Counted from the stretch's first letter, positions 5,973 through 27,607 are shown. The stretch is 36,799 nt of DNA from Planctomycetales bacterium (GCA_005239935.1 SBAZ01000152.1:1-36799); one strand, 5' to 3'. Numbers and translations: made by a program. The notes: generated from the letters alone by a model not told the origin.

Positions 5973-6863
5973 TCAACCGCGTCCGGCGCGCGTGCCCAGC
6001 GCGGCGGCTACGGTGCGGCCGATCGCGGCCGGGCTCTCGATGACGGTCACCCCGGCCGCCTTCAGGGTCGCCATCTTTTCCGCGGCCGTGCCCTTCCCGC
6101 CTGCGATGATCGCTCCGGCATGCCCCATGCGTTTTTCCTTGGGGGCCAGGCGCCCGGCGACAAACGCGAACACCGGCTTGCGGATGCCGGCTTTTTTGAT
6201 GAGGGCAGCGGCTTCCTCTTCTTCTGTCCCGCCGATTTCGCCAATGAGCACGATGGCGTCGGTCTGGGGGTCTGTCTCGAGCAGCGGCAGCAGGTCCGTG
6301 AAGCTGGAACCCAATACCGGGTCGCCGCCGATGCCGATGCAGGTCGACTGTCCCAGCCCGGCTTGGGTCAACTGGTACACGGCATCATAGGTGAGGGTGC
6401 CGCTGCGGGAGAGCACCGCCACCCGGCCCGGCGCGTGGATGTAGCCGGGCATGATCCCCACCTTGCAGACCCCTGGGGTAATGAGGCCTGGGCAGTTCGG
6501 TCCGATGAGCCGGGAGGCACTCCCCTGCAGCCGCCGGCGGATGCGCACCATGTCGAGCGTCGGGATGCCCTCCGTGATTGTGACGACGAGTCGGAGGCCG
6601 GCGTCCAACGCCTCGACCATGGCGTCGTACGCGAACCGGGCCGGCACAAAGATGACGGTGGCGGTAGCACCGGTGGCCTTCACCGCGTCTCGCACCGCGT
6701 TGAAGACCGGTACCCTGTGCACCTGCTGGCCGGCCTTGCCCGGCGTGACACCGCCGACCACCGCCGTGCCGTACTCCAGCATCTTCTCCGTGTGGAAGGC
6801 GCCGGCTTGGCCGGTGATGCCCTGCACGAGCACGCGGGTGTCCTTGCCGACCAGGATGCTCAT
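5973..6863 (-). CDS. sucD: Succinyl-CoA synthetase alpha subunit
   Basis: [33 protein letters not shown] and RMGHAGA (phospho-His). Confidence 0.97.
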
Positions 6864-6967
6864 CCTACCACCTGCCGCACGGCCGCTGACACGGGCTTGC
6901 CACTGGTGCGGCCGAGCGCGCTGCGCTCGGCGTGCCTTCGGCACGCCCCGGCAGGTGGTGGAATCAT
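6860..6967 (-). mobile_element. ATGA-flanked palindromic element E1 with a 35-aa bridging ORF (sucC|sucD)
   Basis: ATGA-TTCCACCACCTGCCG...[56 protein letters not shown]. Mobility is inferred. Confidence 0.75.
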
Positions 6968-8148
6968 CGGGCGAGCTCGACGACCTTCCGGGCGGCCTCT
7001 TCCAGCTCGTCGCAGGTGATGAGGTTCAGCCGCTCGGCCTGCCGGAGCAGGCGACGGCCCTCCTCGACATTCGTGCCCTGCAACCGGACGACGATCGGCA
7101 TCGTGACTTGGAGTCGCTGCGTGGCATTGAGCAGCCCCTGCGCGATCCAGTCGCAGCGCATGATGCCGCCGAAGATGTTCACGAGGATCGCCTTGACCCG
7201 GGCGTCGGCCAGGATGATCTCGAAGGCCTTGGTCACCTGGTCCACGTTGGCCCCGCCGCCGACGTCGAGGAAGTTCGCGGGCTGCCCGCCGCACAGCGTG
7301 ATGATGTCGTTCGTTGCCATGGCCAACCCGGCGCCGTTGACCAGACAGCCAATCGTCCCGCTGAGCCCAACATAGGAAATGCCAATGCGACTTGCCTTGA
7401 GCTCCAGCGGGTGCTCCTGGCTCTCGTCGCGCAGGCCGGCGAGGTCCGGGTGCCTGAAGAGCGCGTTATCGTCGAGGACAACTTTCGCGTCCACCGGCAG
7501 CAGCCGGCCGTCTTCGAGGAGCGACAGGGGATTAATCTCCACGAGCGAGGCGTCCTGCGCCTCGAAAAACCGCCAGAGCCCCTGGGCCATGCGCTGCCCC
7601 TGCTCTGCCTGGGACCCGCTCAGGCCCAGCGTGTCGGTGAGGCGCCGCGCGGCGGCGGGGGTGAGTCCTTCGGTGATCTCCAGCAGCTCCCGATGAATCG
7701 CGCTGGGCTGGGTGGCGGCCACCTCTTCGATGTCGACGCCGCCCTGCCGGCTCGCCAGGACGACGGGGGCGGCCCGGAACCGATCGATGGTGACCGCCAC
7801 ATAGAGCTCTGCGCGGGCCGCCACGCGCTCATCGATGAGCACGGCGGTTACCGGCAGCCCCTCCGGCCCTGTTTGTGTGGTGACGAGCCGCCGGCCCAGC
7901 AGGGCGCGGGCGTGCTCAGCGGCCTGCGCAGCGCTCGTCGCCACCAGGATGCCGCCGGCCTTGCCGCGGCCGCCGGCGTGGAGCTGCGCTTTGACGTTGC
8001 AGACGAACCCCTCACCGCCCCCGCACGCGGCGCGCAGCCGGTCATAGGCGCTGGCGGCCTCTTGGGGGGTCGTGGCGGGCACTCCGCGCTGGATGGGCAC
8101 TCCGGCGGCCTCGAGCAGCTGTTTGGCCTGGTATTCATGGAGCTTCAT
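6964..8148 (-). CDS. sucC: Succinyl-CoA synthetase beta subunit
   Basis: [40 protein letters not shown] and NFLDVGGG. Confidence 0.97.
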
Positions 8149-8164
8149 GAACGACGGCGCCGGG

Positions 8165-9313
8165 TTACCGGCGCTGGTCGAGCGGGACGAACCGCAGGTC
8201 CCGCGGGCCCACGTAGCTGGCCAGCGGGCGGATGAGCCGGTTGTCGGAGGCCTGCTCGAGGATGTTCGCCGACCAGCCGGCCATGCGCGCGCAGGCGAAC
8301 ATCGCCGTGAAGAGCGGCGTCGGGATGTTGAGGTAGTGCAGCAGCGAGGCGGAGTAGAAGTCCACATTGATGTACAACTGCTTGGCCTGCCACACGGCTT
8401 CCTGCAACTTGGTGGAGATGTCGAACCATTTGAGGTCCTGGTGCGCCCGGCCCAATTGCTCGGCCAGCGCCCTGAGATGCTTCGCGCGCGGATCCGCCCC
8501 CTTGTACACACGGTGTCCGAACCCCATGAAGCGCTTGTGGTCCGCCAGGGTCTTCTGCACGTAGCCCACGACGTTGTCCGGCGTGCCGATCTCCTCCAAC
8601 ATCTCCATGGCCTTGCTGTTCGCAGCACCGTGGAGCGGGCCCTTCAGCGTGCCGATGGCGGCGGTGATCGCCGAGTAGTAGTCCGACTTCGTGCCCATCA
8701 CGGTGCGGGCTGCGAAGGTGGAGGCGTTCAGGCCGTGCTCGGCCAGCAGCACGAAATACGCGTCGAGGGCCTGGACCTCGAGGGCGTCCGCCTCCCGGCC
8801 GTGCAGCAGGTACAGGAAGGTCGCGGCTTGGCTCAAGCCGCGCTTCGGCGGCAGGGGCTCCTGCCCCGCCTCGAGCCTGGCGATGGTGGCCACGAGACTG
8901 ACTGTCTTCGCGATGACCCGGACGCTCTGCCGCCGCATGGTGTCCAGCTCGTCCGAATCCCCGTCAGGATCGTGGACGCCGAGGAGCGAGATGGCACTGC
9001 GCAGCCGGGCCATCGAGCTGCTGCGGCGCGGCAGGCTGCGCAGGAACGCCAGGATCTCCGGCTCGAGCGTGCGGTGGGCCTCCAGCTGCGTCGTCCAGTC
9101 GGCCAGCTGGCCGCGCGCGGGAAGGGCGCCGAAGAGCAAGAGGTAGCTGACTTCCTCATACGTCGTGCGGCCGACCAGTTCATCGATGTGGTAGCCCCGG
9201 TAGATCAGCTGACAGTTCTTGCCGTCGACCTCCGAAATCGTCGTTTCGGAGGCGATGACGCCTTCGAGCCCCTTGTGGACTTCCGGCTTGGCTGCGGCCT
9301 CCGGCGCGCTCAT
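8165..9313 (-). CDS. gltA: Citrate synthase (short type I; 2-methylcitrate synthase not excluded)
   Basis: GLEGV, LIYRGY, AEHGLNAST, GPLHGAAN, GFGHRVYK, DPRA and NVDFYS; lies between mdh and sucC. Confidence 0.9.
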   Translation of the reverse strand: MSAPEAAAKPEVHKGLEGVIASETTISEVDGKNCQLIYRGYHIDELVGRTTYEEVSYLLLFGALPARGQLADWTTQLEAHRTLEPEILAFLRSLPRRSSSMARLRSAISLLGVHDPDGDSDELDTMRRQSVRVIAKTVSLVATIARLEAGQEPLPPKRGLSQAATFLYLLHGREADALEVQALDAYFVLLAEHGLNASTFAARTVMGTKSDYYSAITAAIGTLKGPLHGAANSKAMEMLEEIGTPDNVVGYVQKTLADHKRFMGFGHRVYKGADPRAKHLRALAEQLGRAHQDLKWFDISTKLQEAVWQAKQLYINVDFYSASLLHYLNIPTPLFTAMFACARMAGWSANILEQASDNRLIRPLASYVGPRDLRFVPLDQRR

Positions 9314-10257
9314 GAGTCGGTCGGCTGCAGGGCGGCCAGGTGTCGGGTCATCTCGGTGATCTGCTTGGCGGCGGCCACCAGCGCCTCGCGCTCCCCGGTC
9401 GTCAACGTGACCTCCACCACGCGTTCCGCGCCTCCGCGGCCCAGTTGCACCGGGACGCCGAGGCAGACGTCGTCCAACCCATACTCCCCATCGAGCCGGA
9501 CGCAGACCGGCAACACGGCATGCGTGTCCTTCAAGATCGCCGTCGCCATGGTCACGACACTGCTCGCCGGCGCATAGAAGGCGCTGCCTGTCTTGAGCAA
9601 CCGCACCAGTTCGGCCCCGCCGTCGCGCGTGCGCTGGAACAGCTGCTCCAGTTCTGCATCGCTGATCACCGCCGTGACCGCTTTGTCCCCGACCCGGATG
9701 GAGCCGCGCACCGGGACCATGAGATCCCCGTGCGAGCCCAGGACCATCGCCTGCACCTCGGTGGGGGGGACGCGCAGCCGCTGGGCCACGAAGGTTTGCA
9801 GGCGGGCGCTGTCGAGCACCCCCGCCATGCCCAGCACGCGCTGGCGCGGGAAGCGCGTGCGCTGCAGGACCAGGGCCACCATGACATCGAGCGGGTTGGT
9901 CACGACGATGACGACGGCGTCGGCGGCGTCGAGGGCGATGCGGTCGGCGATCGGGCCGACGATCGCTGCGTTGGCCGCCAGGAGGTCCTCGCGCGACATC
10001 CCCGGTTTGCGCGGCAGCCCGGCGGTGACCACCACCAGCCGGCTCCCGCTGAGGGCCCCGAGGTCCGTGGTGCCGGCGAGGTGGCTGCGAAAACCCTCGA
10101 TCGGCGCGGACTGCAGCAGATCCAGCGCCTTGCCCTGGGCCAGCCCGTCGGCAATGTCAATGAGGGTGACGTCGGCGAGCCCTTTGAGGGCGAGCAGATG
10201 CGCCGTGGTGGCGCCGACCTGCCCGGCGCCGACGACGGAGACTTTCGGCAGGGACAT
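9310..10257 (-). CDS. mdh: Malate dehydrogenase (LDH-like)
   Basis: GAGQVG, TAGLPRKPGMSREDLL, VTNPLD, GMAGVLDSAR and LGSHGD. Confidence 0.95.
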   Translation of the reverse strand: MSLPKVSVVGAGQVGATTAHLLALKGLADVTLIDIADGLAQGKALDLLQSAPIEGFRSHLAGTTDLGALSGSRLVVVTAGLPRKPGMSREDLLAANAAIVGPIADRIALDAADAVVIVVTNPLDVMVALVLQRTRFPRQRVLGMAGVLDSARLQTFVAQRLRVPPTEVQAMVLGSHGDLMVPVRGSIRVGDKAVTAVISDAELEQLFQRTRDGGAELVRLLKTGSAFYAPASSVVTMATAILKDTHAVLPVCVRLDGEYGLDDVCLGVPVQLGRGGAERVVEVTLTTGEREALVAAAKQITEMTRHLAALQPTDS

Positions 10258-10293
10258 GCCCGAGGTCAGTGGACGAGGTGACGACTGGTCTGG

Positions 10294-10566
10294 CTACACG
10301 CGGATCCCCAGCACGACGAGTGCCGTGCCTGCCACGACCCACGCCAGCCAGGTCAGCGCGGCGAGCAACCAGCGCGTCCCCAGGGCGAGGCCGGAAAACC
10401 CGCCGACATACCACGCGCGCCAGTCTTCCGTGGGGTTCAGCCGAGCCCCGACGCGCGAGTGCGTGCGCCGCGCGCCGCGGATCCGGCCGGTCGCCACCAG
10501 GCACCCAACCAGGATCGACACGCCGCCGGTCAAGACCGCCACACTCTTGACCACTTCGGGAGTCAT
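10294..10566 (-). CDS. Small hypothetical membrane protein (2-3 TM)
   Basis: 90-aa ORF with hydrophobic segments filling the pfkB-mdh gap; TGc-TACACT upstream. Confidence 0.55.
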   Translation of the reverse strand: MTPEVVKSVAVLTGGVSILVGCLVATGRIRGARRTHSRVGARLNPTEDWRAWYVGGFSGLALGTRWLLAALTWLAWVVAGTALVVLGIRV

Positions 10567-10640
10567 CGCAGACGAGAATCGTCGTGCGGCGTCAGTGTAG
10601 CAAAGGCACGCAACCCGCGCAACGTTTCCTCCCCGACCCC

Positions 10641-11579
10641 CTAGACGATCCGGGTCAGGCGCACCCGGGGACGCAGGCGCTGGACGTCTCCCCGATGGCA
10701 CAGCGTCGTCCCTGGCGTCATGGCGGCGGCAGCCCCGCACGCCACGGCGAGCCGCAGCGCCTCGGGCAGTCCGAGGTCCCGCGCGCACCCTGTCAGGAAG
10801 CCGCCCACGAACGAATCCCCGGCGCCCACCGCCGAGCGCACCCGCACGCGCGGCGGCACGGCCTGCCAGACGGCGCGCGGCACCCCGTGCGCCATGAGCG
10901 CGCCCTGGGCCCCGAGGGACAGGAGCACGACTTCCGGGCCCCGCGCGCGCAGCTGCTGCGCGGCCACCACCGCATCGGTCAGTGAACGGATCCGGCGGCC
11001 CAGCACCTCCTCGGCCTCCTGCCGATTCGGTTTCACCGCCCACGGGCGTGCCTGCAGGGCTTCGCGCAAGGCCCGGCCGGAGGTGTCCACCAGCACCCGC
11101 ACCCGGCGCCGCCGGAGGGTGCTTGTCCAGCGCCGATAGAGCGCGGCCGAGACGCCCTGCGGCAGGCTGCCGCACAGCGCCACGGCCTGCGGCGGCGGCC
11201 GCTGCCGGCACAGCGCGCGCAGCAACGCGCTGAGGGCGGCGGGCGGTACCCGCGGACCTGCCGTGTTGATTTCCGTCAGCGCCTGGGGACGGCGCGTGAT
11301 CAGCTTATAGTTGTTTCGCGTGGCCCCGGCAGCCTCCACGTAGTGGTGCCGCACGCCCATTTGCCGCAGGTGGTGGCGCAGGATGGCGCCGTCGCTGCCG
11401 CCCGCGCAGAGGTAGGCGATCGTGGCGTGGCCCAGCTCATGCGCCACGCGGGACACGTTGAGACCCTTGCCGCCCGGGTACCGGACGAACTGGGTGGCGC
11501 GGTTGAGCGCGCCGAGCCGCAGGGCCGGCAGCTCCACCCATTCGTCCAACGACGGGTTGAGCGTCACCGTCGCGATCAT
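10641..11579 (-). CDS. pfkB: 1-phosphofructokinase-family (PfkB) sugar kinase
   Basis: TVTLNPSLD, PGGKGLNVS, CGSLP, KPNRQE and SAVGAGDSF. Confidence 0.93.
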   Translation of the reverse strand: MIATVTLNPSLDEWVELPALRLGALNRATQFVRYPGGKGLNVSRVAHELGHATIAYLCAGGSDGAILRHHLRQMGVRHHYVEAAGATRNNYKLITRRPQALTEINTAGPRVPPAALSALLRALCRQRPPPQAVALCGSLPQGVSAALYRRWTSTLRRRRVRVLVDTSGRALREALQARPWAVKPNRQEAEEVLGRRIRSLTDAVVAAQQLRARGPEVVLLSLGAQGALMAHGVPRAVWQAVPPRVRVRSAVGAGDSFVGGFLTGCARDLGLPEALRLAVACGAAAAMTPGTTLCHRGDVQRLRPRVRLTRIV

Positions 11580-11722
11580 CCCACCACCTGCCGCGCGCAG
11601 CGGCCACAGGAGATCTCCACCCGGGCCGCTGCGGGCGCGGCGGGTGGGTGAACAGTGAATGCAGAGGCTAACGCGCCGCGCATCCCGCCGGTCGGCGGGA
11701 TGGGCGCAGGTGGTGGGATCAT
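11576..11722 (-). mobile_element. ATGA-flanked palindromic element E2 with a 48-aa bridging ORF (glgA|pfkB)
   Basis: ATGA-TCCCACCACCTGC...GCAGGTGGTGGG-ATGA. ORF MIPPPAPIPPTGG...RCARQVVG*. Confidence 0.75.
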
Positions 11723-13194
11723 GGCGCCACGGCCTGCCGGGTCCGTGCCTGCTCGTACACCCGGGCGTAGGCGCCGGCCGCCTGCGTCCAGGAGAAGTCG
11801 CGGGTCATCCCGTGGTGCATCAGGCGACGCCACCTCGCGGGCCTTGCAAACGCCGCGGTCGCCCGCGCGACTGCGGCCACCAGCGCCACCGGCGTGTAGG
11901 CGTCGAACACGATCCCCGTCGCGGTGCCTGCGTCCAGCGTGGCCGGGGTGAGATCAACGACCGTGTCCGCCAGCCCGCCGACGCGCCGCACGATGGGCAC
12001 CGTCCCATAGCGCATGCTGTACATCTGGTTGAGGCCGCACGGCTCAAAGCGTGAGGGCATCAGGAAGGCATCCGCCCCGGCCTCGATCTGATGCGCCAAC
12101 GCCTCATCGAAGCCGAGGCGCACCGCCACTCGATCCGGATGATGCCGGGCAGCCGCCTGCAACTGCGCCTCGTAGGACGCCGCGCCGCTGCCGAGCACGA
12201 CCAATTGGACCGGCACCGCCATCAGCTCCGCGAGGGCGGCCAGGAGCAGGTCGACGCCCTTCTGCTCGACGAGCCGCTGCACCATCCCGATGAGCAGATC
12301 CGGCCGCTCCGGCAAGCCTAGCTCGTGCTGGAGGGCGCGCTTGCACGCGGCCTTGCCGGCCGGGTCCTCGGCGGCATACCGCGCGGCCAGGTGCGAATCC
12401 GTCGCAGGATTCCAGACGTCGACGTCGATGCCATTCAAGATGCCGGTGAGGTCTTCGGCTCGCCGACGCAGCACGGCGTCCAACCCGCAGCCAAATTCCG
12501 CCGTCTGGATCTCCCGCGCGTAGGTCGGACTCACGGTCGTCAGGCGATCCGCGCTCAGGAGTCCACCTTTCAGGCAGTTCACCTGGCCGCGAAATCCCAC
12601 CCCTCCCTGCCCACGCGCGGCGGAGGGCAGCCCGGTCTGCGCGCCCTGTGCGGCGGGAAAGAGGCCCTGGTAGGCCAGGTTGTGCACGGTCAGGACGGTG
12701 GGCATGCCCTGCCAGGCGGGCATGGATCGAGCCTCGCCCCAGGCCAGATGCGCACAGACCAGGGCTGCGTGCCAGTCGTGCGCGTGCACCACATCCGGAC
12801 GCCAGTCCAGGTGCGGCATCGCGGCCAGTACTGCGCGGCAGAACAGGCTGAACCGGGCCAGGTTGTCCGGATAGTCGGTGCCGCGCGCAGGATCCTGGTA
12901 GAGGCCGTCGCGGTCAAACGCCTCCGGAGCGTCGAGCGCGTGGACGATGACCTCAGTGCCCGGCAGCAGTCCTGACCAGACGCGCACGCGCACGTCCTGC
13001 GCCCCGAACGGCGCCGTGACGACGATTTCCGTGCGGGCGAGCCCCTGGCGCGACAGACTGCGGTACGCCGGCACCAGGACGCGGACGGCATGGCCCTGGG
13101 CCGCCAGGGCCTTGCTCAGGGCCCCGGTGACATCCCCGAGCCCGCCGGTCTTGATCAGCGGGGCGAGTTCAGACGCTACGTGGAGGACGTTCAC
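11719..13194 (-). CDS. glgA: Glycogen synthase (GT5)
   Basis: KTGGLGDV, HAHDWH, TVHNLAYQG and MPSRFEPCGLNQ. Confidence 0.96.
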   Translation of the reverse strand: MNVLHVASELAPLIKTGGLGDVTGALSKALAAQGHAVRVLVPAYRSLSRQGLARTEIVVTAPFGAQDVRVRVWSGLLPGTEVIVHALDAPEAFDRDGLYQDPARGTDYPDNLARFSLFCRAVLAAMPHLDWRPDVVHAHDWHAALVCAHLAWGEARSMPAWQGMPTVLTVHNLAYQGLFPAAQGAQTGLPSAARGQGGVGFRGQVNCLKGGLLSADRLTTVSPTYAREIQTAEFGCGLDAVLRRRAEDLTGILNGIDVDVWNPATDSHLAARYAAEDPAGKAACKRALQHELGLPERPDLLIGMVQRLVEQKGVDLLLAALAELMAVPVQLVVLGSGAASYEAQLQAAARHHPDRVAVRLGFDEALAHQIEAGADAFLMPSRFEPCGLNQMYSMRYGTVPIVRRVGGLADTVVDLTPATLDAGTATGIVFDAYTPVALVAAVARATAAFARPARWRRLMHHGMTRDFSWTQAAGAYARVYEQARTRQAVAP

Positions 13195-13233
13195 GGGAGA
13201 ACGAGCGGCCGTGCGGCGGTGCGGCGGTGCGGC

Positions 13234-14829
13234 TCACGCGCCGGAAGGCGCGTAGACACGGTAGTCCAGGAAGGGGAAACAGTTGTCCGTTGTTTCGAGA
13301 CTTGTCAGCCAGCCATCCTCGAGGCGCTGGGCCTGTAACCCGTCATGGAGACGGTTGAACCGCGCCACATGGTCCTGGATCCGGCGGTACGCGTACCCGG
13401 TGTGGGTGCCGGTCTTCAGGATGAAGGGCCAGTCCGAGGCTTGGGCCAGCAGAAGCTCCCGCGCCATCTGGTTGAGGGTCCGCCGCTGCAGGGCATTGGG
13501 CTGGGGGAACTGCCGGGCCGCGGCGACCATCCGGTCCGCCAGGGTGTGCACGTGGCGGTAGATCCAATCATTGGCGCCGTTGAGCCAGACCTCGCTGTAG
13601 CCGTTGTAGCCCCAGCTGGAGAGGGAGGGCACCAGGCGCTGGTTGACGGGATAGTGGCGGAGGTAGTCGGACGGGGCGATCAACTCGATCGTCTGCTGAT
13701 CGACATGGGCCTTCCGGATGAGAAACTCCAGCCACTCCGGCCCCTCGAACCACCAGTGGCCGAAGAGCTCGGCGTCGTACGGGCTGATGATGATCGGCGC
13801 GCGGTCCATGACGGTCCGCAGGAACCCCACTTGCTGCTCGCGGTTGAAGAGGAAATTGCCGGCATGCGCGGCCGCCTGCTCCAGCGCCCGGTCCGGATCG
13901 TAGGGCTGTTTGTCATCGGTCTTGCCGGTAATCCGGTAGTACTTGATGCCCGTATTCGTGCGCTGGCCGTCGCCGTTGAGGTAGGGCCGCACGTAGTCGT
14001 GGTCGAGGTCGTAGCCGATATCCCGATAGAACTCGCGGTACAGGAAATCGCCGGGGTAGCCTTCCTCCGCGCTCCAGACGCTCTTCGACGACTCGAGGTC
14101 GCGTCCGAACGCCGCGACGCCGCTCGGACAGATGGCCGGCGCATAGACGCCGTACTTCGGCCGCGGCGACCCGAACAGGAGGCCGTGCGCGTCCGTCAGG
14201 AAGTAGCGGATGCCGAATGCCTTGAGGAACGCATCGTGCCCCGGCTGGTAGCCGCACTCCGGCAGCCAGAAGCCCTCCGGGCGCCGCCCGAAGGCGTGCT
14301 CGAAGGCCTGCACCCCAACCGCGATCTGCGCGCGCACCGCCGTCGGATTGATCTCGAGGAGCGGCAGGAACCCGTGCGTCGCGCAGGAGGCAATGGGCTC
14401 CAGGCTGCCCTGCTCCGCCAGGGCGCGAAAGGCGCCGATGAGGTCCTGCCGGTAGCCGTCCGTGTAGCGCTGCCGCGCCGTCGTCAGGCGGTGATGGTAG
14501 AAGTACGCCAGCCGATGGAACGGCGGCTGCCAGCGCGTGCGCTCGATTTCCTTGCCCGCGAGCTCAATGAGCCCGTCGAGGTGCCGCAGGTAGCGCGCCT
14601 GCAGGAGGGGATCGGCCAGCATCGCCAGCAGCGTCGGGGTAAACGACATCGTGATGCGGAACGGAACCCGGTCGTTCACCAGGCGCTCGAACCGCTCGAG
14701 GAGCGGGAGATACGTTTCGGTGATGGCCTCGAAGAGCCACCGCTCCTCGAGGAACGACTCGTGCTCCGGGTGGCGCACGAACGGCAGGTGCGTGTGCAGG
14801 ACGAGCGCGAGGAAACCCTGGCGCGTCAT
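13234..14829 (-). CDS. GH57 1,4-alpha-glucan branching enzyme-like protein (DUF1957 domain)
   Basis: LHTHLPFVRHPE, EAITETYLPL, FWLPECGY, YDAELFGHWWFEG and LAQASDWPF. Confidence 0.93.
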   Translation of the reverse strand: MTRQGFLALVLHTHLPFVRHPEHESFLEERWLFEAITETYLPLLERFERLVNDRVPFRITMSFTPTLLAMLADPLLQARYLRHLDGLIELAGKEIERTRWQPPFHRLAYFYHHRLTTARQRYTDGYRQDLIGAFRALAEQGSLEPIASCATHGFLPLLEINPTAVRAQIAVGVQAFEHAFGRRPEGFWLPECGYQPGHDAFLKAFGIRYFLTDAHGLLFGSPRPKYGVYAPAICPSGVAAFGRDLESSKSVWSAEEGYPGDFLYREFYRDIGYDLDHDYVRPYLNGDGQRTNTGIKYYRITGKTDDKQPYDPDRALEQAAAHAGNFLFNREQQVGFLRTVMDRAPIIISPYDAELFGHWWFEGPEWLEFLIRKAHVDQQTIELIAPSDYLRHYPVNQRLVPSLSSWGYNGYSEVWLNGANDWIYRHVHTLADRMVAAARQFPQPNALQRRTLNQMARELLLAQASDWPFILKTGTHTGYAYRRIQDHVARFNRLHDGLQAQRLEDGWLTSLETTDNCFPFLDYRVYAPSGA

Positions 14830-14975
14830 CCCCCCACCCGCTGATGTCCCGCCCACGGGCGGGACGCGCGGCGGGATACAGCCGCGCGTGTCCAATCCCT
14901 CCGCCCGCCGCGCACGCAACGGCCCCCTCGGCCCTTCACCATGGTGCCGTTGCGGACAGCTGGTGGGGGGATCAT
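14826..14975 (-). mobile_element. ATGA-flanked palindromic element E3 with a 49-aa bridging ORF (DUF4912|GH57)
   Basis: ATGA-TCCCCCCACCAGCTG...CAGCGGGTGGGGGG-ATGA. ORF MIPPPAVRNGTMVKGRGG...AGHQRVGG*, translated by hand. Confidence 0.7.
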
Positions 14976-17821: not shown

Positions 17822-17831
17822 GACCCCTCCG

Positions 17832-18110: not shown

Positions 18111-18127
18111 AGGACCTCCTTTACGAC

Positions 18128-18239
18128 GGGGACAGGCCCCCTGCGGGGCCCAGTCCCCTTCACGGCCAACAACCTCGGCCCGGGGTCAGGCTCCGCGCGT
18201 AAGCTTCCACCGCGTCGCGCGCGGACCCAGACCCCTTCA
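18128..18239. repeat. Pair of REP-like hairpins with GGGGWCAGGC...CCCAGWCCCC-TTCA ends
   Basis: Hairpins at 18128-18158 and 18182-18235, each followed by TTCA. Confidence 0.6.
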
Positions 18240-18254
18240 AGGCCAGGTACTTGA

Positions 18255-20718: not shown

Positions 20719-20722
20719 GGGG

Positions 20723-20932
20723 TCAGCGCTCGCGCCTCAGGTCCAGGGTGGCGGAGGTCTCGGCTTCGAGCGCGTAGCCGCGCTCGCGCGCCCAAGCGGT
20801 TAGATCCCGCCGCACGTCCTCGGCGTTGTAGCAAATTCGCAGGGCCTGTCCAGCCGCGAGACGGGCGGCGGCGCGGGCGACCAGTGCGAGGGCCTGCGCG
20901 CAGACCATGTCTCGGACATCCACCGTCGACAC
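20723..20932 (-). CDS. TusA-like sulfur carrier (can also be read from ATG 21094 as an E4 fusion)
   Basis: [12 protein letters not shown]...LAAGQALRI...[11 protein letters not shown]; GTG start directly after the element end. Confidence 0.75.
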
Positions 20933-21094
20933 CCCACCACCTGCTGGTGCCACGCCGCAGGCGTGGCGGGGCCGGGCGCATCCCGGCTGGCTCGGCATGT
21001 GCCGGCCCGGGTGACCCCCGGGTCGGCCGTGCGGTTCGCCACGTGGGGTGTGCGTGTCATGAGTGGGTCGCCCTCCAGCAGGTGGTGGGGTCAT
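20929..21094 (-). mobile_element. Palindromic element E4 (JAMM gene|tusA-like), ORF fused in frame to the downstream gene
   Basis: ATGA-CCCCACCACCTGCTGG...CCAGCAGGTGGTGGG-GTGT; the interior aligns with E5. Confidence 0.75.
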
Positions 21095-21555
21095 GCCCTG
21101 CCACCGGCCGACCGACCCGGCGCGACATCTTCCAGCGTCCAGGGCTCCTCGGTGACCGTGGCCCCGTCAATGTGCCAGGTCCGCAGTTCGGGCGTGAGCG
21201 CCTGCCGCAGCGACACAACGACGTACGCCACCTCCGGCGAAATCGCCAGGGTCACGTCCACGGACGAGGGCCGAGCCTCGGTGGCCGTGTGCGAGTGGTA
21301 GATGCCCACGAGGATCTGATCCCGCTGGCGCATCTGCTTCTCGACCATGAGCTGCTCTTTGGGATCCATGGAATAGCCGATCGGGCTGTCGTCCACGTTG
21401 CGCATGGGGTAGACGGCCATGACCGCCCGCTGGCGTCCTGTCGGCGCGACCCGCATGCCGGCCAAGAGACCGCACGCCTCCTTGGGATACGCGCTGCGGC
21501 AGTGCGCGATGATCTGGTCGTAGGCCACGCGCGGAAGCACCAGCGGACTGTCCAT
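21091..21555 (-). CDS. M67/JAMM (Mec-like) metallopeptidase
   Basis: PKEACGLL...YHSHT..ARPSSVD JAMM motif. Confidence 0.92.
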   Translation of the reverse strand: MDSPLVLPRVAYDQIIAHCRSAYPKEACGLLAGMRVAPTGRQRAVMAVYPMRNVDDSPIGYSMDPKEQLMVEKQMRQRDQILVGIYHSHTATEARPSSVDVTLAISPEVAYVVVSLRQALTPELRTWHIDGATVTEEPWTLEDVAPGRSAGGRA

Positions 21556-22355
21556 CAGCCGACCAGTCCCCAGCGCACTTGCACTTCATACTCCAGCCGC
21601 TTGAAGATCAATCCGTCCACGACAATGCCCACCGCGGCGATCAGCAACATGAGGGCGAGGAGCTGATCCAGTTGCTGCGCTTTCGCCACCTGGCTCAGCC
21701 GCTGCCCCAGGCCGCTCACCGAGGTCAATAACTCGCCGGCCATCAACGCGCGCCACCCAAAAGCCCACGCCAACCGCAATCCGCCCACAATCTTGGGAAC
21801 CGCTGCGGGCACCACGACGAACCAGAAATACCTCGGCCCGCGGGCCCCCATGGTGCGGGCGGCGTGACGGATGATGGGCGGCACCTGGCGAATCCCGGTA
21901 TCGGTCTCCACGATCACGATCCCCGCGGCCCCCAACAGCACGGTGAACACCACCGCCTGCTCGGTCATGCCGAACCACAGGATCGCCAGCGGGACCCACG
22001 CCGCCCCAGGGATGCCGTGCATCGCCACCGCGAGAGAGCCCAGGAGCTGGTCAACCAGCGGCAGCCGGCCCAGCATGATGCCACCCCCGACGCCGAGCAC
22101 CACGACCAGGCTGTACCCGACTGCCATCCGTCGAGCGCTCCCGGCGAGGGCCTGCAGGAACTCCGGATCCCGGAAATCGCGCGACCAGACCGGCGCAATC
22201 TCCGAGAACAAGGACGGCCACGCGGGTGAGCAGAACGCGCCCACCTCCCACACCACGATAAACAGGGCGAACGCCTGCCAGGTGAGAAACGAATACCCCC
22301 TCGGGAAGATGGTGCGAACCAGCCGACGCAGCATGCCGAGAGGCCTCGCGGCCAT
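21555..22355 (-). CDS. NitT/TauT/SsuC-type ABC permease
   Basis: IPGAAWVPLAILWFG, AARTMGA and LRLAWAFGWRALMAGELL. Confidence 0.92.
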   Translation of the reverse strand: MAARPLGMLRRLVRTIFPRGYSFLTWQAFALFIVVWEVGAFCSPAWPSLFSEIAPVWSRDFRDPEFLQALAGSARRMAVGYSLVVVLGVGGGIMLGRLPLVDQLLGSLAVAMHGIPGAAWVPLAILWFGMTEQAVVFTVLLGAAGIVIVETDTGIRQVPPIIRHAARTMGARGPRYFWFVVVPAAVPKIVGGLRLAWAFGWRALMAGELLTSVSGLGQRLSQVAKAQQLDQLLALMLLIAAVGIVVDGLIFKRLEYEVQVRWGLVG

Positions 22356-23195
22356 TTAGATGTGCATGCCCGTGGCCTGGTCGGGAGGCAGGCTGTGCTG
22401 CGCCTCGGGGAAGTGGACCGTCTCTCCGAGCTCTTCCCGGAAGACCTTCTCGACTTCTTCGCCGAGGATGCCGAGAATCGCGTGCTGGTGGGCTTGCAGC
22501 GCGTGGTCCTCGGCGTGCCGTGGGCGCGGCACGGTGATCGCTTGGACGTCGCGGATGCGGCCCGGGCGCGAGGAGATCACATACACGCGGTCCGCCAATC
22601 CCGTGGCCTCGCGTACATTGTGCGTGACAAACAGGATCGTCGGGCGGGCCAGTTCCCAGATTTCCAGCAGTTCGTTCTGCAGCACCGCGCGCGTTTGGGC
22701 ATCCAGTGCCGCGAAGGGCTCGTCCAGCAACAGGATGGACGGCTGCAGCACCAGAGCGCGCGCGATCGCAACGCGCTGCTTCATGCCGCCCGAGAGTTGA
22801 TGCGGGTACGCGTGACTGAACTTCGACAGATGCACCAATTTGATGTACTCGAGTGCCCTCGCACGCCGCGTGATGGCCGGTATGCCGGCCATGCGCAGAC
22901 CGAATTCCACATTGCCGAGGACATTGAGCCAGGGAAACAGGGCCGCGTCTTGGAACACCACGATGCGGCTGGGGTCCGGGCCGTGCACCGGACGGCCTTC
23001 GACCGCCACCTCCCCGCGGTCCGGGCGGTCCAGACCAGCAATCAGGTTGATGATGGTGCTCTTGCCGCACCCGGACGGGCCGAGGAGGCACACGAACTCC
23101 CCCTCGCGGACCGTGAGGTTGATATCGTTCAGCACCTCCACGCGTCCGCCATTCTGTGGGAAGGATTTGAAGACGTGCTTCAGCTCGACGTGCAT
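22356..23195 (-). CDS. NitT/TauT/SsuB-type ABC ATPase
   Basis: GPSGCGKST, LSGGMKQR, LLLDEPF and FVTHN. Confidence 0.95.
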   Translation of the reverse strand: MHVELKHVFKSFPQNGGRVEVLNDINLTVREGEFVCLLGPSGCGKSTIINLIAGLDRPDRGEVAVEGRPVHGPDPSRIVVFQDAALFPWLNVLGNVEFGLRMAGIPAITRRARALEYIKLVHLSKFSHAYPHQLSGGMKQRVAIARALVLQPSILLLDEPFAALDAQTRAVLQNELLEIWELARPTILFVTHNVREATGLADRVYVISSRPGRIRDVQAITVPRPRHAEDHALQAHQHAILGILGEEVEKVFREELGETVHFPEAQHSLPPDQATGMHI

Positions 23196-23261
23196 GGGTG
23201 CGCCGGGACATGTCCGCCCGCTCGAGTCACGCAACGGCGGTCGGGAAACGTCCCGCTGCTC

Positions 23262-24413
23262 CTAGACTTGTGCGGGCTTCCGCATGGCCTCAATGAGGAC
23301 CGCGGCGACCTCGGGTCGCGAGACCTCTGGGGGAGGCGGCGTGCCGGCCTGCAGCAGTTCTCGGACCCTGGTCCCGCTCAGACTCACGTGTTTGTCGGCC
23401 GGATGGGGGCAGGTCTTCGCCGTCACCATCCCGCCGCACACGGTGCAGAACGCGGCATTCTCGAACCGCAGCGGCGTGATGCCGAGCTCTGCCGGGTCGA
23501 AGTCGTCGAAGATGCGCTGCGCATCGTACGTGCCATAGAACTTGCCCACGCCGGCATGGTCGCGGCCGACAATGAAGTGGGTGCACCCGTAATTCTTGCG
23601 GATGAGCGCATGGAACACCGCCTCGCGCGGGCCGCCGTAGCGCATGGAGGCCGGGTTGACCGCCAGCACCACGCGGTCCTTCGGGAAGTAGTGCGCCAGG
23701 AGCGCCTCATAGCTTCTCATGCGCACCGCCGCCGGCACATCATCCCCCTTGGTTTCCCCGATGATGGGATGCAGCAGCATGCCGTCGCAGAGTTCGAGGG
23801 CGCACTTCTGCAGGTACTCATGGGCCCGGTGGATCGGGTTGCGCGTCTGGAACGCCACCACCCGCCGCCAGCCGCGTTCCTCGAAGAGGCGCCGGGTATC
23901 CTTCGGATCCAGGCGGTACGGGAGGAATGTGGCGGGCGTTGGGCGGCTGATCACGCTGATCCGGCCCCCGACAGAGACCTCGCCGGTGGCCTGCAGGCGC
24001 TGGACGGCCGGGTGGCTCGAGTCAGTCGTGCCGAAGACCTGCTGGGCCTCAGCGGTCTTGTCCGGCGTGTACGTCTCAGACACGTGGAGTATTGCGACCA
24101 CGGCGCCGTTTGCCCGCAGCGCCACGTCGCCTTGCAGGGCGGCGGCCTGCGTCTTCGAGACGGCCAGTGTGACGGGAATGGTCCACACGAGCCCGCTGGC
24201 AAGGCGGCGTTCGCCCACGACGCGCTCATAGTCCGCCCGGCCCATAAATCCCTCGAGTGGACTGAAGCCGCCGATGGCGATCATCTCGACATCCGACAGC
24301 CCCCAGGCGTCCAGTTCTATGGCCGGCAGCGACTCCGCCCTGGCCGCGAGGGTGTCTCGTTCGCGTCCCTCGAGGATTCGATTCACCAGCGTCCCGCCGT
24401 GCGGTGCGATCAT
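23262..24413 (-). CDS. sat: Sulfate adenylyltransferase
   Basis: [33 protein letters not shown] and LSGTRVRE. Confidence 0.97.
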
Positions 24414-24450
24414 GCGTCCGACCCCTCTCGCGTCACGTGCCCGTGTGCAC

Positions 24451-24478
24451 AAAACGCCCCGCCGAGCGGCGGGGCGTT
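24451..24478 (-). terminator. Terminator-like hairpin upstream of sat
   Basis: AACGCCCCGCCG-CT-CGGCGGGGCGTT followed by TT on the minus strand. Confidence 0.5.
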
Positions 24479-24481
24479 GCA

Positions 24482-24553
24482 AGTCTCACATATATGACTA
24501 GTGTTGTCAATATCTAAAACGAAACAGCCACATATATCCTACTTATTGACTCT
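24482..24553 (-). promoter_or_regulatory. sat operon promoter with overlapping Rrf2 (IscR/CymR)-like operator candidates
   Basis: TTGACA (24510-24505)-N17-GAGACT (24487-24482). An imperfect palindrome ATATGAC-N7-GTCAATAT covers the -35, and CACATATAT is repeated 42 bp apart. Confidence 0.6.
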
Positions 24554-25931
24554 GACTACTAGAGCCCGCCGGCTCGCCGAGCCGGCCCAGCGACTTGAGC
24601 CAGGCCTTGATGAGCTTCTCCTGCCCCAGGTCGGTCGGCCGGTAGTACACGGTGGACGTCGGGATATAGGCCTGTTCGACGTGGTGCCTGGCGTAGTGGT
24701 GCGCATACTTGTACCCCACGCCCCGGCCCAGCTGCTTGGCGCTTCGGTAACTGGCATCCTTGAGATCTGAGGGGACCTCGAGCGTGCGGCCGGCTTGCAC
24801 ATCGGCGGTCGCCGCCTCCAAGCCCAGGTACGCCGCGTTGGATTTGGGCGCACTGGCCACATAGACCGTAGCCTCGGCCAGCGGGATGCGTCCCTCCGGC
24901 AACCCCACGTATTCGAGGGCGTGCATCGCCGCCGTCGCCACCACGAGTGCTTGCGGATCGGCCATCCCCACGTCCTCGGCCGCGCAGATGACGATCCGGC
25001 GCGCGATGAAGCGCGGATCCTCGCCGGCGTAGAGCATCTTCGCCAGCCAATAGAGTGCCGCGTGCGGATCCGAGCCGCGCATGGACTTGATGAAGGCGCT
25101 GATCGTGTCGTAGTGCGCGTCCCCGGCCTGGTCGTACACGACGGCCTTCTTCTGGATGGACGACTCGACCGCCGCCAGCGTCACCCGCACCACCCCGTCA
25201 GGACCCTTGGCTGTCGTGAGGGCCGCCACCTCCAGCGCGTTCAAGGCCCGTCGTGCGTCGCCGTCGCACACACGGGCCACATGGGCCAGTGCGTCCTCAT
25301 CGACATGTGCGCGCTGCTGCCCCAGGCCGCGCGCCGAGTCCGCCAGTGCCCGGCGCAGGAGGACGATGATGTCCGCCTCGCTGAGCGGCTTGAACTCGCA
25401 GACGATCGAGCGCGAGAGGAGTGCCGGGGCCAGCGCGAAGAAGGGATTGAACGTCGTCGCCCCGATGAGGATGGGGTTGCCCTGCTCGACGTCCGGCATG
25501 AGGACGTCCTGCTGAGCCTTGTTGAAGCGGTGGATCTCGTCGATGAAGAGCAGGGTGCGCTGTCCCTGCAGCCGGGCCCGCTCCGTGGCGCGCCGGAGTG
25601 TGTCGCGCACCTCCGCCACGCCGGCGGCCGTGGCGTTCAGCTGCTCAACGTGGGCGCGCGTGGCGGAGGCGATGAGGTGGGCGAGCGCGGTCTTTCCCGT
25701 CCCGGGTGGGCCGTACAGGATGACGGAGGTGATGCGGTCCGCCTCAATGGCGCGCCGCAGCAGCTGCCCCGGCCCGACGATATGCGCCTGGCCGGCGAAT
25801 TCATCCAGCGTGCGCGGCCGCATCCGGACCGCCAGGGGCTGGGGCACTGAGGCGGCTGGGGTCTCTGGCACCCCAAACAGGTCTGGGCCAGGTCGGGAGA
25901 CGGTACGAGGTACCGAACGGCGTGCGCCCAT
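24543..25931 (-). CDS. rarA: Replication-associated recombination protein A (RarA/MgsA)
   Basis: PLAVRMRP, GPPGTGKT, FIDEIHRFNKAQQD and HYDTISAFIKSMRGSD. Confidence 0.97.
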   Translation of the reverse strand: MGARRSVPRTVSRPGPDLFGVPETPAASVPQPLAVRMRPRTLDEFAGQAHIVGPGQLLRRAIEADRITSVILYGPPGTGKTALAHLIASATRAHVEQLNATAAGVAEVRDTLRRATERARLQGQRTLLFIDEIHRFNKAQQDVLMPDVEQGNPILIGATTFNPFFALAPALLSRSIVCEFKPLSEADIIVLLRRALADSARGLGQQRAHVDEDALAHVARVCDGDARRALNALEVAALTTAKGPDGVVRVTLAAVESSIQKKAVVYDQAGDAHYDTISAFIKSMRGSDPHAALYWLAKMLYAGEDPRFIARRIVICAAEDVGMADPQALVVATAAMHALEYVGLPEGRIPLAEATVYVASAPKSNAAYLGLEAATADVQAGRTLEVPSDLKDASYRSAKQLGRGVGYKYAHHYARHHVEQAYIPTSTVYYRPTDLGQEKLIKAWLKSLGRLGEPAGSSSQSQ

Positions 25932-25959
25932 GAGGGTCCTGGTGGCGGTGAGAGAGAAC

Positions 25960-26129
25960 GAGCCCCACGGCTGCCGTGGACTCGAAGAGGCGTGAACCCC
26001 AACCTCAAGGGGGTACTCGCTCCGGCGTGGGGCGCAATGCCCTGACAGGGGCCCACGCGTCGGAAGCCGAGTTCCCGTCTGACTCGTGTTGGCTCACGTC
26101 ATACGAACCACACGCACAGCGCAGGGCTC
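25960..26129 (-). ncRNA. ssrS: 6S RNA
   Basis: About 170 nt with complementary ends (GAGCCCT...GGGGCTC) and 6S-like internal motifs (TGAGCCAAC, ACGGGAAC, TACCCCCTTG..GGGGTTCA, ACGGCAG). It has its own promoter and lies upstream of rarA. Not confirmed by a covariance search. Confidence 0.8.
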
Positions 26130-26135
26130 AGCGTC

Positions 26136-26164
26136 AGACTAGCACCGGCCCGGTGGGTTGACAA
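26136..26164 (-). promoter_or_regulatory. Sigma70-type promoter of 6S RNA/rarA
   Basis: TTGTCA (26164-26159)-N17-TAGTCT (26141-26136) with a TG extension. Confidence 0.7.
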
Positions 26165-26170
26165 GCAAAT

Positions 26171-26881
26171 TCACCCCGGCGGCGGCTGGCCAATGTCGTG
26201 GATGCCGCATTCCGTCTTGTCCTGTCCGGCCCAACGCCCGGAGCGCGGGTCGTTCGGATCCACGGGGCGCTGGGTGCAGGGCCAGCACCCGATGGACGTG
26301 TAGCCCTGGGCCCACAGCGGATGATAGGGCAGATTGTGCTCGGCCATGTAGGCGTGCACCTGCTTCGCCGTCCACGTGGCCAGCGGGGCGACCTTCGTCA
26401 CGCCGGTCTCGAGGACCTGCACGACGGGGGTCGCCGCGCGCGTCGGCGCCTCGTCGCGGCGCAGACCCGTGATCCAGCACCGCACGCCCCGCAGGGCGCG
26501 TTCCATCGCCTCGACCTTGTACGGGCTGCAGCAAAAATCGGGATGGCCCGGCTGCTGCCCCTCGTGCTCCTTGAGGAACGCGGGCACATCGAGTCGGCTT
26601 TTGACGACCGTGAGGTGCAGCTGGAAGCGCTGGCGCAGGGCTTCCAAGAACTGGTAGGTTTCCGGGAACAGCAGCCCGGTATCCACGGTGCGGACGTTGA
26701 TCGCCGGATCGACCTGGAGCGCCAGATGGATCAGCGCGGCGCTGTCCGTGCCGAAGGAGGTGGTCAGCGTCACGTCCGGGCGGAAGGTCTCCACCGCCCA
26801 GCGGATGATGTCCGTCGGGTGCGCGGCCTCGAAGCGGGCGTTGAGCCGCGTTACCTCATCGGGCGTGGGTGCCGGGCTCAT
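26171..26881 (-). CDS. cysH: PAPS/APS reductase, Fe-S-motif type
   Basis: TSFG, DTGLLFPET, FCC, WITGLRR, GYTSIGCWPCT and RSGRW...KTECGIH. Confidence 0.95.
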   Translation of the reverse strand: MSPAPTPDEVTRLNARFEAAHPTDIIRWAVETFRPDVTLTTSFGTDSAALIHLALQVDPAINVRTVDTGLLFPETYQFLEALRQRFQLHLTVVKSRLDVPAFLKEHEGQQPGHPDFCCSPYKVEAMERALRGVRCWITGLRRDEAPTRAATPVVQVLETGVTKVAPLATWTAKQVHAYMAEHNLPYHPLWAQGYTSIGCWPCTQRPVDPNDPRSGRWAGQDKTECGIHDIGQPPPG

Positions 26882-27446
26882 GGGGGGAGGGCGTCGCCGA
26901 GGCCTTCGGGATCCACGCGTGCTGCTCCAGGTAGCTGAGGATCGCCTGCGCGCTCTCCTCGACGCGCTGCGTGCCGGAATCCACCAGGATGTCCGGATTG
27001 AGCGGCGCCTCGTAGGGGTCGGAGACGCCCGTGAAGTTCTTGAGCTCGCCGGCCAGCGCCTTCTTGTACAGCCCTTTGACGTCGCGCTTGGTCAGTGCTT
27101 CGATGGAGCACTTGACGTACACTTCGATGAAGTGGCCGATCTCCTTCCGGTTGTGGTCGCGCACCTCCCGGTAGGGCGAGATGGCCGCGCTGATCGCCAC
27201 CACCCCGTTGCGCGTGAGCAGCTTGCACACGTAGCCGATGCGCTTAATGTTCGTGTCGCGATCTTCTTTGCTGAAGCCCAGGCCCTTGCTGAGATTCGTG
27301 CGCACCTCATCCCCGTCAAGAATTTCCACCCGGAGCCCGCGGTGGCGCAGCTCGTCGGCGATGCGGGTCGCGAGCGTGGACTTCCCCGCCCCGGAGAGCC
27401 CGGTGAACCAGAGGGTAAACCCTTTGTCGTGCTGGCCGGATGTCAT
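26856..27446 (-). CDS. cysC: Adenylyl-sulfate kinase
   Basis: WFTGLSGAGKST, LDGDEVR, RDVKGLYKKA and FTGVSDPYE. Confidence 0.97.
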   Translation of the reverse strand: MTSGQHDKGFTLWFTGLSGAGKSTLATRIADELRHRGLRVEILDGDEVRTNLSKGLGFSKEDRDTNIKRIGYVCKLLTRNGVVAISAAISPYREVRDHNRKEIGHFIEVYVKCSIEALTKRDVKGLYKKALAGELKNFTGVSDPYEAPLNPDILVDSGTQRVEESAQAILSYLEQHAWIPKASATPSPHEPGTHAR

Positions 27447-27607
27447 CCCACCACCTGCTGATGCCACGCCGTAGGCATGGCGGGACCGGCCACATCATGG
27501 CTGGTAGGGCGCGGGCCGGCCCGGGCGACCCCCCGGTCGGCTTCGCGGAATACTAGGTCTAGGCGACTTGTCGTTGCTGGGTCGCCCCCAGCAGGTGGTG
27601 GGATCAT
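27443..27607 (-). mobile_element. ATGA-flanked palindromic element E5 with a 54-aa ORF, between the probable original SD and cysC
   Basis: CAGGAGtccc-ATGA-TCCCACCACCTGCTG...CAGCAGGTGGTGGG-ATGA. ORF MIPPPAGGDPATTSRLDLVF...[10 protein letters not shown], translated by hand. Confidence 0.75.

Follow-up and report, generated by a model that had tools for sequence, protein, structure and literature searches.

How can a mobile repeat lie on the start codon of an operon gene, and how would ribosomes pass it? This question is raised by a 36,799-nucleotide (nt) stretch of DNA from Planctomycetales bacterium (GCA_005239935.1 SBAZ01000152.1:1-36799), hereafter the window, which carries five elements (E1 to E5) with common inverted ends on its minus strand. 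An earlier note on this DNA had proposed that each element encodes a bridging mini-open reading frame (mini-ORF) that keeps translational coupling intact. The window is contig C41 of an assembly of 1.63 Mb in 156 contigs, with 68% G+C and 92% completeness. The copies form a short (~80-165 bp), palindrome-rich mobile family that resembles MITEs (miniature inverted-repeat transposable elements), and the host is an Omnitrophota-type groundwater genome. Taken as a whole, we consider it probable that these are mobile repeats on start codons, whose frames are selected as a ribosome relay and whose autonomous form encodes a GIY-YIG domain.

Target duplication at start codons

The element-end pattern ATGATCCCNCCNCCNGC, with at most 2 mismatches, matched the window 9 times against 0.70 expected, and none of 100 shuffles reached 9. 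E1 (6860..6967; all window-element coordinates are given on the minus strand) illustrates the arrangement. An ATGA at 6967-6964 is followed by the element at 6963-6863 (T...A, 99 nt inner) and by a TGA at 6862-6860. In the left ATGA, TGA is the sucC stop and ATG the start of a mini-ORF of 108 nt and 35 amino acids (aa). The sucC 3' part (6964..8199, minus strand) has its stop at 6966-6964, and this TGA serves as the target duplication's left copy. The right copy, TGA 6862-6860, overlaps the sucD ATG (6863-6861), and the start codon of sucD (5973..6863, minus strand) is rebuilt from the last A of E1 and the TG of the duplicated TGA. This ATG is a true gene start, as the SucD N-terminus is common to 25 relatives, and the overlap of mini-ORF stop and downstream ATG is as the note had described it.

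The same layout was found in E2 (11576..11722), with ATGA at 11722-11719, the element at 11718-11579 (138 nt inner, family B) and TGA at 11578-11576. Its mini-ORF comprises 147 nt (48 aa), its orientation is opposite to that of the other family B copies, and it is flanked by a GlgA-like starch synthase and a PfkB kinase (neighbours throughout, SucC and SucD included, were assigned with Pfam). E3 (14826..14975) consists of ATGA at 14975-14972, the element at 14971-14829 (141 nt inner) and TGA at 14828-14826; its repeats are diverged (CCCCCCACCAGC / GCGGGTGGGGGG), its mini-ORF of 150 nt (49 aa) has the C-terminus QRVGG*, and its neighbours are a DUF4912 protein and a GH57 branching enzyme. E5 (27443..27607), upstream of an APS kinase gene, has ATGA at 27607-27604, the element at 27603-27446 (156 nt inner, family C), TGA at 27445-27443 and a mini-ORF of 165 nt (54 aa). 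When remeasured, the ATGA-to-ATGA spans of 108, 147, 150 and 165 nt agreed exactly with the note. Each begins with ATGAT, ends with ATGA and is closed by a single terminal stop in translation. The four peptides start with MIPPPA and end with (Q/R)V(V/G)G, and their interiors are unrelated, as had been claimed.

E4 (20929..21094) had been left out of the note and belongs to another length class. It runs from ATGA at 21094-21091 through the element at 21090-20932 (C...G ends, inner 157, total 159) to the right triplet at 20931-20929, which is TGT and not TGA. Its ORF has no stop in the element and continues in frame into a TusA-like gene (GTG at 20932), forming a single 123-aa ORF at 21094-20723. 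Its neighbours are JAB and TusA, and it shares 81% identity with E5 over 105 nt.

A search of the source genome for both element ends gave 58 pairs, or 53 in the 1.63-Mb assembly once nested alternatives were removed and E3 was added, with inner lengths of 79-163 nt for short copies. The terminal inverted repeats are 13 nt long, (T/C)CCCACCACCTGC ... GCAGGTGGTGGG(A/G). Most copies have T..A beside the 12-mer, others C..G; because both ends always change together, this base belongs to the inverted repeat. Read in the direction of the genes, the flanks are (A)TGA-T-CCCACCACCTGC ... GCAGGTGGTGGG-A-TGA. The direct repeat outside the inverted repeats is 3 bp, TGA in 42 of the 53 pairs. Matching triplets other than TGA also occur on both sides, namely TAA (C6), ACA (C31:5186) and AAG (C68) in the source genome, and TTA (L046, L059), CAA (L115), TGG (L121, L125) and CGA (nested, L128) in relatives. 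The flanking triplets co-vary on both sides, and they are therefore a target duplication and not a fixed part of the element; insertion of the IS200/IS605 type beside a fixed tetranucleotide is rejected on the same ground. After insertion the upstream gene retains its TGA stop, the last base of the element (A or G) and the duplicated TGA rebuild ATGA or GTGA, and the former ATG opens the short ORF across the element.

Empty sites were found in related genomes. In 7 relatives (L016, L020, L025, L027, L032, L034 and L035), sucC and sucD meet in a plain ATGA overlap, and a pilN/pilO-like junction, which holds a copy with a GIY-YIG gene in the source genome, is an ATGA overlap in 4 relatives. A possible shared sucC-sucD insertion in G009 (L018) was left uncounted; there an element precedes sucD, yet the upstream sequence is not sucC. 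In 11 relatives (within L012-L030), the sucC-sucD spacer contains unrelated hairpins built from short tandem units and inverted copies, such as GGCTCAA x4 ... CCTTCAG x4 and runs of GATTTTG/CAAAATC. This junction is one that different palindromic repeats have colonised repeatedly.

The left tetranucleotide of the 42 TGA-flanked copies was ATGA in 33, GTGA in 5, TTGA in 1 and CTGA in 3. ATGA makes up 27% of NTGA in the genome, and the excess has a p value of 4e-12. At least 99 open codons end at the first TGA in 34 of the 42 copies, and at least 95 run from the second start in 39. Each site is either an ATGA at which the stop and start of two co-directional genes overlap or a single start codon of the form ATG-A. 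The note's picture of one coupled junction turned into two holds for those 34 copies, and the remainder lie on stand-alone start codons. Among the latter is E5, for which a coupled junction had been claimed: only 35 open codons precede the element, and its first ATG has its own AGGAG 5 nt upstream. About 236 ATGA overlaps in the source genome are unoccupied, as counted by a rough heuristic based on ORFs and third-position G+C.

The element ends pair with each other, and the stem that they form encloses two or three GC-rich hairpins. Window copies fold at -68 to -99 kcal/mol; in E2 (-93.4 kcal/mol), the terminal repeats are the closing stem. Stems are conserved among the members of a family, whose loops are unrelated, and in family B compensatory changes were found in 12 of 40 consensus pairs. 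In two pairs of copies (C82:7745-7876 with C82:11658-11789, and C46:7757-7894 with C46:8844-8981), one loop is shared and the second is wholly different; the upstream flank is also shared in one of these pairs. This split sharing suggests recombination between copies at the conserved stems. A dedicated loop-diversifying mechanism is not needed, as turnover with stem selection at each round of copying, known from REPIN populations, would together with recombination be enough. Every bridging ORF opens with Met-Ile/Thr-Pro-Pro-Pro (window 6967-6950, for example), as the left repeat is read in frame. Proline runs slow ribosomes unless EF-P helps, and the run in the mini-ORFs could pace re-initiation.

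Length phase and stop codons across the elements

An element was counted as in phase when its inner length is divisible by three, i.e., when its element length is 2 modulo 3. By this definition 39 of the 42 TGA-flanked copies in the source genome are in phase, with ten distinct in-phase lengths (99 to 315) against three out of phase. The commonest in-phase lengths were 132 (9 copies), 138 (12) and 156 (6), and those of family B step by three (135, 138, 141, 144). The exact-end pattern found 46 further copies in 11 of 24 same-family genomes and none in 16 genomes outside the family. Forty of the 46, from 11 other genera, are flanked by TGA, and 34 of these are in phase, with 18 distinct lengths in phase and 6 out. 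When genome-specific repeat variants were used, 22 of 26 copies were in phase in G014 and 13 of 24 in G005.

When the pattern was relaxed, 272 matches flanked by TGA were obtained, spread over 22 of 41 related genomes. Phase was counted among the 150 matches listed, from which 4 alternatives that overlapped others and 2 matches containing runs of N were removed, leaving 144 from 12 genomes. The relay phase accounted for 98 of these, the fusion phase for 26 and the third phase for 20, with 37, 14 and 12 distinct lengths, respectively. Tandem and nested copies jointly restore the frame (L114, L116, L117, L128, L129). The frame rule is a statistical one, with exceptions of 7-32% depending on the set, and the distinct-length counts and the flip control described below are safer figures than the raw phase counts.

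Stop codons were counted with the repeats excluded, in the 39 in-phase copies of the source genome and the 34 of the relatives (73 together). In the source genome, the ORF frame contained 0 interior stops and the other two frames 25 and 19; in the relatives, the numbers were 1, 30 and 21. The strongest control reversed the interiors, which alters orientation alone and keeps all else. Only 32 of 73 reversed interiors were open (55 stops), as opposed to 72 of 73 as found (1 stop). Statistically, these comparisons show selection on length phase and on the absence of stops in the orientation used. The interiors have a flat G+C of 0.74/0.74/0.77 at the three codon positions, compared to 0.71/0.52/0.87 in the flanking genes, and families B and C occur in either orientation relative to genes (6 of 12 and 3 of 6 flipped). 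It is therefore the frame that is selected, and by this composition the protein product of the mini-ORFs is not under selection. Length modulo 3, the frame-specific depletion of stops and the selection of the frame rather than the protein all agree with what the note had predicted.

A minority follows a different rule. In the fusion class (element length 0 modulo 3), the first ATG and the rebuilt start share one frame and the element becomes an N-terminal extension, as in E4; 17 of the 20 fusion-class copies examined are open through the element into the downstream ORF. There is in addition a family of 78-87 nt (G000:C68:10215-10293, C155:2116-2194; L121, L125, L128, L129, L149-L168), in which element plus duplication is divisible by three and which reads in frame with the surrounding ORF. 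Its sites include the inside of another element and positions near gene ends, with TGG, AAG and CGA duplications.

The GIY-YIG-bearing long form

The copy at C42:997-1311 is 315 nt long, and its bridging ORF is a 107-aa GIY-YIG domain (PF01541, E = 5.7e-11; 43 bits against a cut-off of 22.6). Sequence-profile matches in the Protein Data Bank were UPF0213 1zg2 (5.2e-15) and 1ywl (9e-12) and SLX1 7cq2 (4.4e-7). Full-length homologues with 46-61% identity were found in six other genera. In five of the six, the gene is framed as ATGA-repeat ... repeat-ATGA and reads in frame from MIPPPA or MIPRPG to QV(G/V)G*; in the sixth (G018), no ATGA precedes the left repeat, and the frame stops at a TGA inside the right repeat. 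All seven copies precede different downstream genes. The repeat variant of the coding form is that of the short copies in the same genome, CCCACCACCTG in the source genome (G000), CCCACCCCCTG in G014 and CCCACGCCCTG in G005. Residues Y19, Y30, G32, R39, R40, H44 and E76 are invariant in 6 GIY-YIG sequences and may correspond to the catalytic residues of I-TevI and UvrC (Tyr of GIY and of YIG, Arg, His and Glu).

A database search returned 458 homologues at E <= 1e-10, with source names of Candidatus Omnitrophica/Omnitrophota; figures on length and termini refer to the 120 matches listed. Among these 78 are exactly 107 aa long, and the termini covary as reverse complements: MIPPP/QVVG in 35, MIPRP/QGVG in 25, MIPQP/QVVG in 9, and more rarely MIPTP/QVWG in 3 and MIPSP/QVMG in 2. 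The first and last codons of the gene are the terminal repeats themselves. At the sequence level, the GIY-YIG gene is shown by this covariation to be an integral part of the long form. In more distant relatives within the same class (L091, L092, L093, L095), small GIY-YIG genes lie between other inverted repeats, and a Lachnospiraceae UPF0213 homologue (L136) has its own ribosome-binding site and lacks such repeats.

A classical autonomous element was sought and rejected. No repeat pair 330-6000 bp apart in the source assembly encloses a transposase, no other transposase there bears these repeats, and a DDE copy on C138 has unrelated ends (GGCTCTGTTGACATCC). The 315-nt form is likely, although unproven, to be the autonomous form of the family, judging by its repeats. 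Tentatively, and with rather less assurance, we propose that the 107-aa protein may be the transposase of an undescribed class of prokaryotic DNA transposons. Such an element, lacking its own promoter and ribosome-binding site, would land on ATGA start codons and be translated by coupling. A structure-specific cut, like that of SLX1, at the base of the extruded hairpin would move it along with its many non-coding derivatives, of which only those that keep the relay would survive.

A second, different small GIY-YIG gene lies beside a tRNA on C133 (G000:C133:9201-9990), preceded by a CGAGTCGAGGG motif and a partial tRNA duplication; the relative L104 has a like arrangement. In the window, a 69-nt unit is repeated 2.3 times with 97% identity at 36629-36799, where it runs off the end, adjoining the tRNA genes at 36421-36494 and 36532-36617. 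The unit holds a stretch like a tRNA 3' half and a CCCTCGACTCGCTCGCG motif related to the CGAGTCGAGGG of C133. These may represent a second type of GIY-YIG element aimed at tRNA genes. The two tRNAs and a 6S RNA (25958-26130, minus strand, 66.6 bits) were the only Rfam matches at gathering thresholds in the whole window, and none fell at any element. The intergenic region at 18120-18250 contains two copies of a hairpin motif of the type GGGGAC..GGCCC...CCAG.CCCCTTCA, and in the groundwater runs its contig depth is raised several-fold and alternative joints are numerous; the region probably represents a further dispersed repeat.

The proposed relay, its alternatives and known systems

From this comparative evidence we infer a relay across the elements. 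Ribosomes that finish the upstream gene, or start at a native ribosome-binding site, would translate across the element and thereby melt the 14-bp end-to-end stem that might otherwise bury the downstream start. They would then terminate atop the rebuilt start and restart there. In most copies the ORF stops at the very TGA with which the rebuilt start overlaps, and in a minority it reads into the downstream gene. With such a relay insertions would be nearly neutral, and only frame-keeping families and copies would persist. No expression signals are visible in the long form itself, which would depend on the same coupling. Its nuclease may cleave the hairpin or cruciform formed by the repeats at its base; that this protein moves the family is put forward with less confidence than the relay. 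The relay interpretation is supported in that it agrees with all the computational tests run. Beyond the earlier note, the analysis adds the terminal repeats with their target duplication, the rebuilding of start codons and the GIY-YIG-bearing form.

Several observations weigh against this account. The genome contains 40,453 TGA, and occupied and unoccupied ATGA junctions are alike from -15 to +15, with nothing beyond ATGA; because TGA is abundant and there is no wider motif, the near-exclusive siting on start codons lacks a mechanistic explanation. Upstream of native coupled starts, AGGTG shows no enrichment (4 of 236 junctions vs. 4 of 236 background windows), as opposed to GGAGG (29 vs. 6). 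On these counts the AGGTGG that the right repeat places 5 nt ahead of the rebuilt ATG is no more than a weak possibility for a ribosome-binding site; the 16S 3' end was not found in the source assembly. The frame rule has exceptions, with 3 of 42 copies out of phase in the source genome, 6 of 40 in relatives and 46 of the 144 looser matches listed off the relay phase. Some of them are true exceptions with internal stops at good junctions (L118, L119, L120, L122, L123). Moreover, raw phase counts overstate independence because copies of one family share a length. Folding shows no strand bias (mean -89.2 vs. -89.3 kcal/mol; 186 vs. 202 G-U pairs), and such equal sense and antisense folding places the structure at the DNA level and is no proof of an RNA role. 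Strand-specific RNA structure was rejected on this ground, and the palindromes are DNA features, as expected if they serve mobility.

The remaining difficulties concern mobility and the enzyme. In contigs from four DNA runs of one groundwater study, which break at element ends, no joint removes an element exactly, an outcome that speaks neither for nor against movement; the joints inside elements (e.g., 11604>11688 and 27463>27588) are other copies matching the shared ends. A cognate full-length GIY-YIG gene is present in only 5 of 13 genomes with at least 7 copies; these copy-rich assemblies are 63-93% complete, and the gene lies mostly on short contigs in the database. Furthermore, the protein is a bare catalytic domain, and GIY-YIG enzymes are not known to make 3-bp duplications.

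These last points would fit an unlinked, unseen transposase, for example of the DDE type, that moves the short elements and makes the 3-bp duplications, with the GIY-YIG gene as cargo or a selfish passenger and the relay unchanged. Duplications of 3 bp are typical of DDE transposases (IS3- and IS5-type), 8 of the 13 copy-rich genomes lack a full-length cognate gene, the 107-aa protein has no recognisable DNA-binding domain, and the source genome holds one DDE_Tnp_1, one rve and three Y1_Tnp genes. However, neither the rve nor the Y1 genes have a repeat-flanked transposase near them, the ends of the C138 DDE element are unrelated, and no repeat pair 330-6000 bp apart holds a transposase. In addition, the repeats bound the GIY-YIG ORF codon for codon, with compensatory changes, in 7 genera and in about 110 of the 120 homologues listed, and the repeat variant follows the short copies in three genomes (G000, G014, G005). 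We regard this explanation as somewhat unlikely. That the elements are instead structured intercistronic motifs serving the host, similar to repetitive extragenic palindromic (REP) sequences, bacterial interspersed mosaic elements or Correia elements, is improbable. Acting in mRNA stability or processing or in protein binding, such motifs would account for the very stable folds of the window copies, for stems kept by compensatory changes while loops drift, and for the location inside operons, and the open frame would be incidental. But the lack of stops is confined to the used frame and orientation (72 of 73 vs. 32 of 73 flipped) and lengths are phased, which count against a structural role because neither is predicted by RNA or DNA structure. 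Families also occur in both orientations (6 of 12 and 3 of 6 flipped) and without folding strand bias, and insertion sites vary between genera, with empty sites in relatives.

Two further explanations concern the frame itself. A founder effect, in which a few master copies of a length divisible by three multiplied without selection on frame, would explain the sharing of lengths within families (132, 138 and 156) that makes raw counts overstate independence. It is very improbable in view of the distinct lengths, which favour the phase by 10 to 3 in the source genome, by 18 to 6 in relatives and by 37 to 14 and 12 among the matches listed from 12 further genomes. Family B also steps by threes, unrelated loops are still free of stops solely in the used frame and orientation, and tandem and nested copies compensate phase. 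The mini-ORFs, being open, starting with ATG and sharing MIPPPA... and ...QVVG ends, could also encode functional small proteins. We give this almost no weight, since the common ends are the terminal repeats read in frame and the interiors are unrelated, codon-position G+C is flat in a manner unlike the genome's genes, and one family can be read in either orientation.

If the relay operates as proposed, the family amounts to a natural experiment on translational coupling, with hundreds of start-codon insertions tolerated largely only with an open bridging frame. It presents a mobile element that rebuilds the start codon it interrupts and lives inside operons of 1-2 Mb genomes. If the GIY-YIG protein does mobilise it, a new catalytic class would be added to the bacterial transposons, with expression fully parasitic on host translation. 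For annotation, caution is advisable, as copies yield spurious small ORFs, N-terminal extensions (E4-TusA) and contig breaks in Omnitrophota assemblies.

Compared with known systems, the family has the short size, many copies, terminal inverted repeats and target duplication with empty sites of MITEs. Bacterial MITEs such as the Neisseria Correia elements are short, multi-copy, non-coding sequences with terminal inverted repeats, a short target duplication and hairpins, next to or between genes; those known stem from DDE insertion sequences and are mostly found in untranslated spacers. The elements described here, in contrast, occupy the start codon, keep the phase and contain no stops, and their repeats recur around a GIY-YIG gene and not around a DDE transposase. 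No transposase with these repeats was found in the source assembly, and the sole coding form carries GIY-YIG. REP/REPIN sequences with their RAYT enzymes and IS200/IS605 elements are similar in having hairpin repeats with conserved arms and free loops, a pattern that suggests selection acting on the replicating element, and one enzyme gene for many copies. However, their insertion duplicates no target, and their hairpins are subterminal and take the place of terminal inverted repeats, as opposed to nine non-TGA copies here with matching 3-bp duplications; the Y1_Tnp genes, moreover, are not flanked by the repeats. The three Y1_Tnp (IS200/RAYT-type) genes of the source genome (G000:C38:408-737, C51:8855-9184, C7:1898-2179) are not near elements and may serve another repeat family.

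Rickettsia palindromic elements insert in genes, keep the frame and become part of the protein. Only a minority length class here (E4 and the 78-87-nt family) resembles them, whereas most copies form a separate ORF between genes, coupled by stop/start overlap. As small selfish GIY-YIG genes between host genes, the long forms recall the free-standing homing genes (phage seg, I-TevI relatives). Homing endonucleases have a DNA-binding domain and long sites, spread by repair and lack terminal repeats or duplications; the protein here is a single domain of 107 aa, repeats and a duplication are present, and the sites share only ATGA. In the titles and abstracts covered, nothing linked GIY-YIG genes to bacterial MITEs, to terminal repeats or duplications, or to Omnitrophota repeats.

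The closest likeness is to the MIRUs (mycobacterial interspersed repetitive units), for which a relay-type idea was reportedly proposed by Supply et al. in 1997. MIRUs are 46-101-bp direct, often tandem units, which are not known to have terminal inverted repeats, a target duplication or a coding autonomous form. By this description they differ from the present elements, whose palindromic structure comes with terminal inverted repeats and 3-bp duplications, whose own last base restores the start codon and which include a GIY-YIG version. A 2025 review describes MIRUs as apparently mobile repeats inserted at start codons, with an internal ORF coupled by a 4-nt overlap, and considers that this coupling likely minimises the effect of insertion on expression (PMC12548453). 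To that extent the likeness covers a mobile repeat at start codons with an ORF overlapping the flanking stop and start by 4 nt, and the relay idea has a precedent in mycobacteria. The idea, said to have been hardly tested since 1997, becomes directly measurable with the present family, which is a MIRU-like relay on a MITE-like element. New with respect to the MIRU precedent are the palindromic anatomy, the self-rebuilt start, the statistics over 22 genomes and the GIY-YIG form, and there is a substantial chance that this coding form is a new class of transposon.

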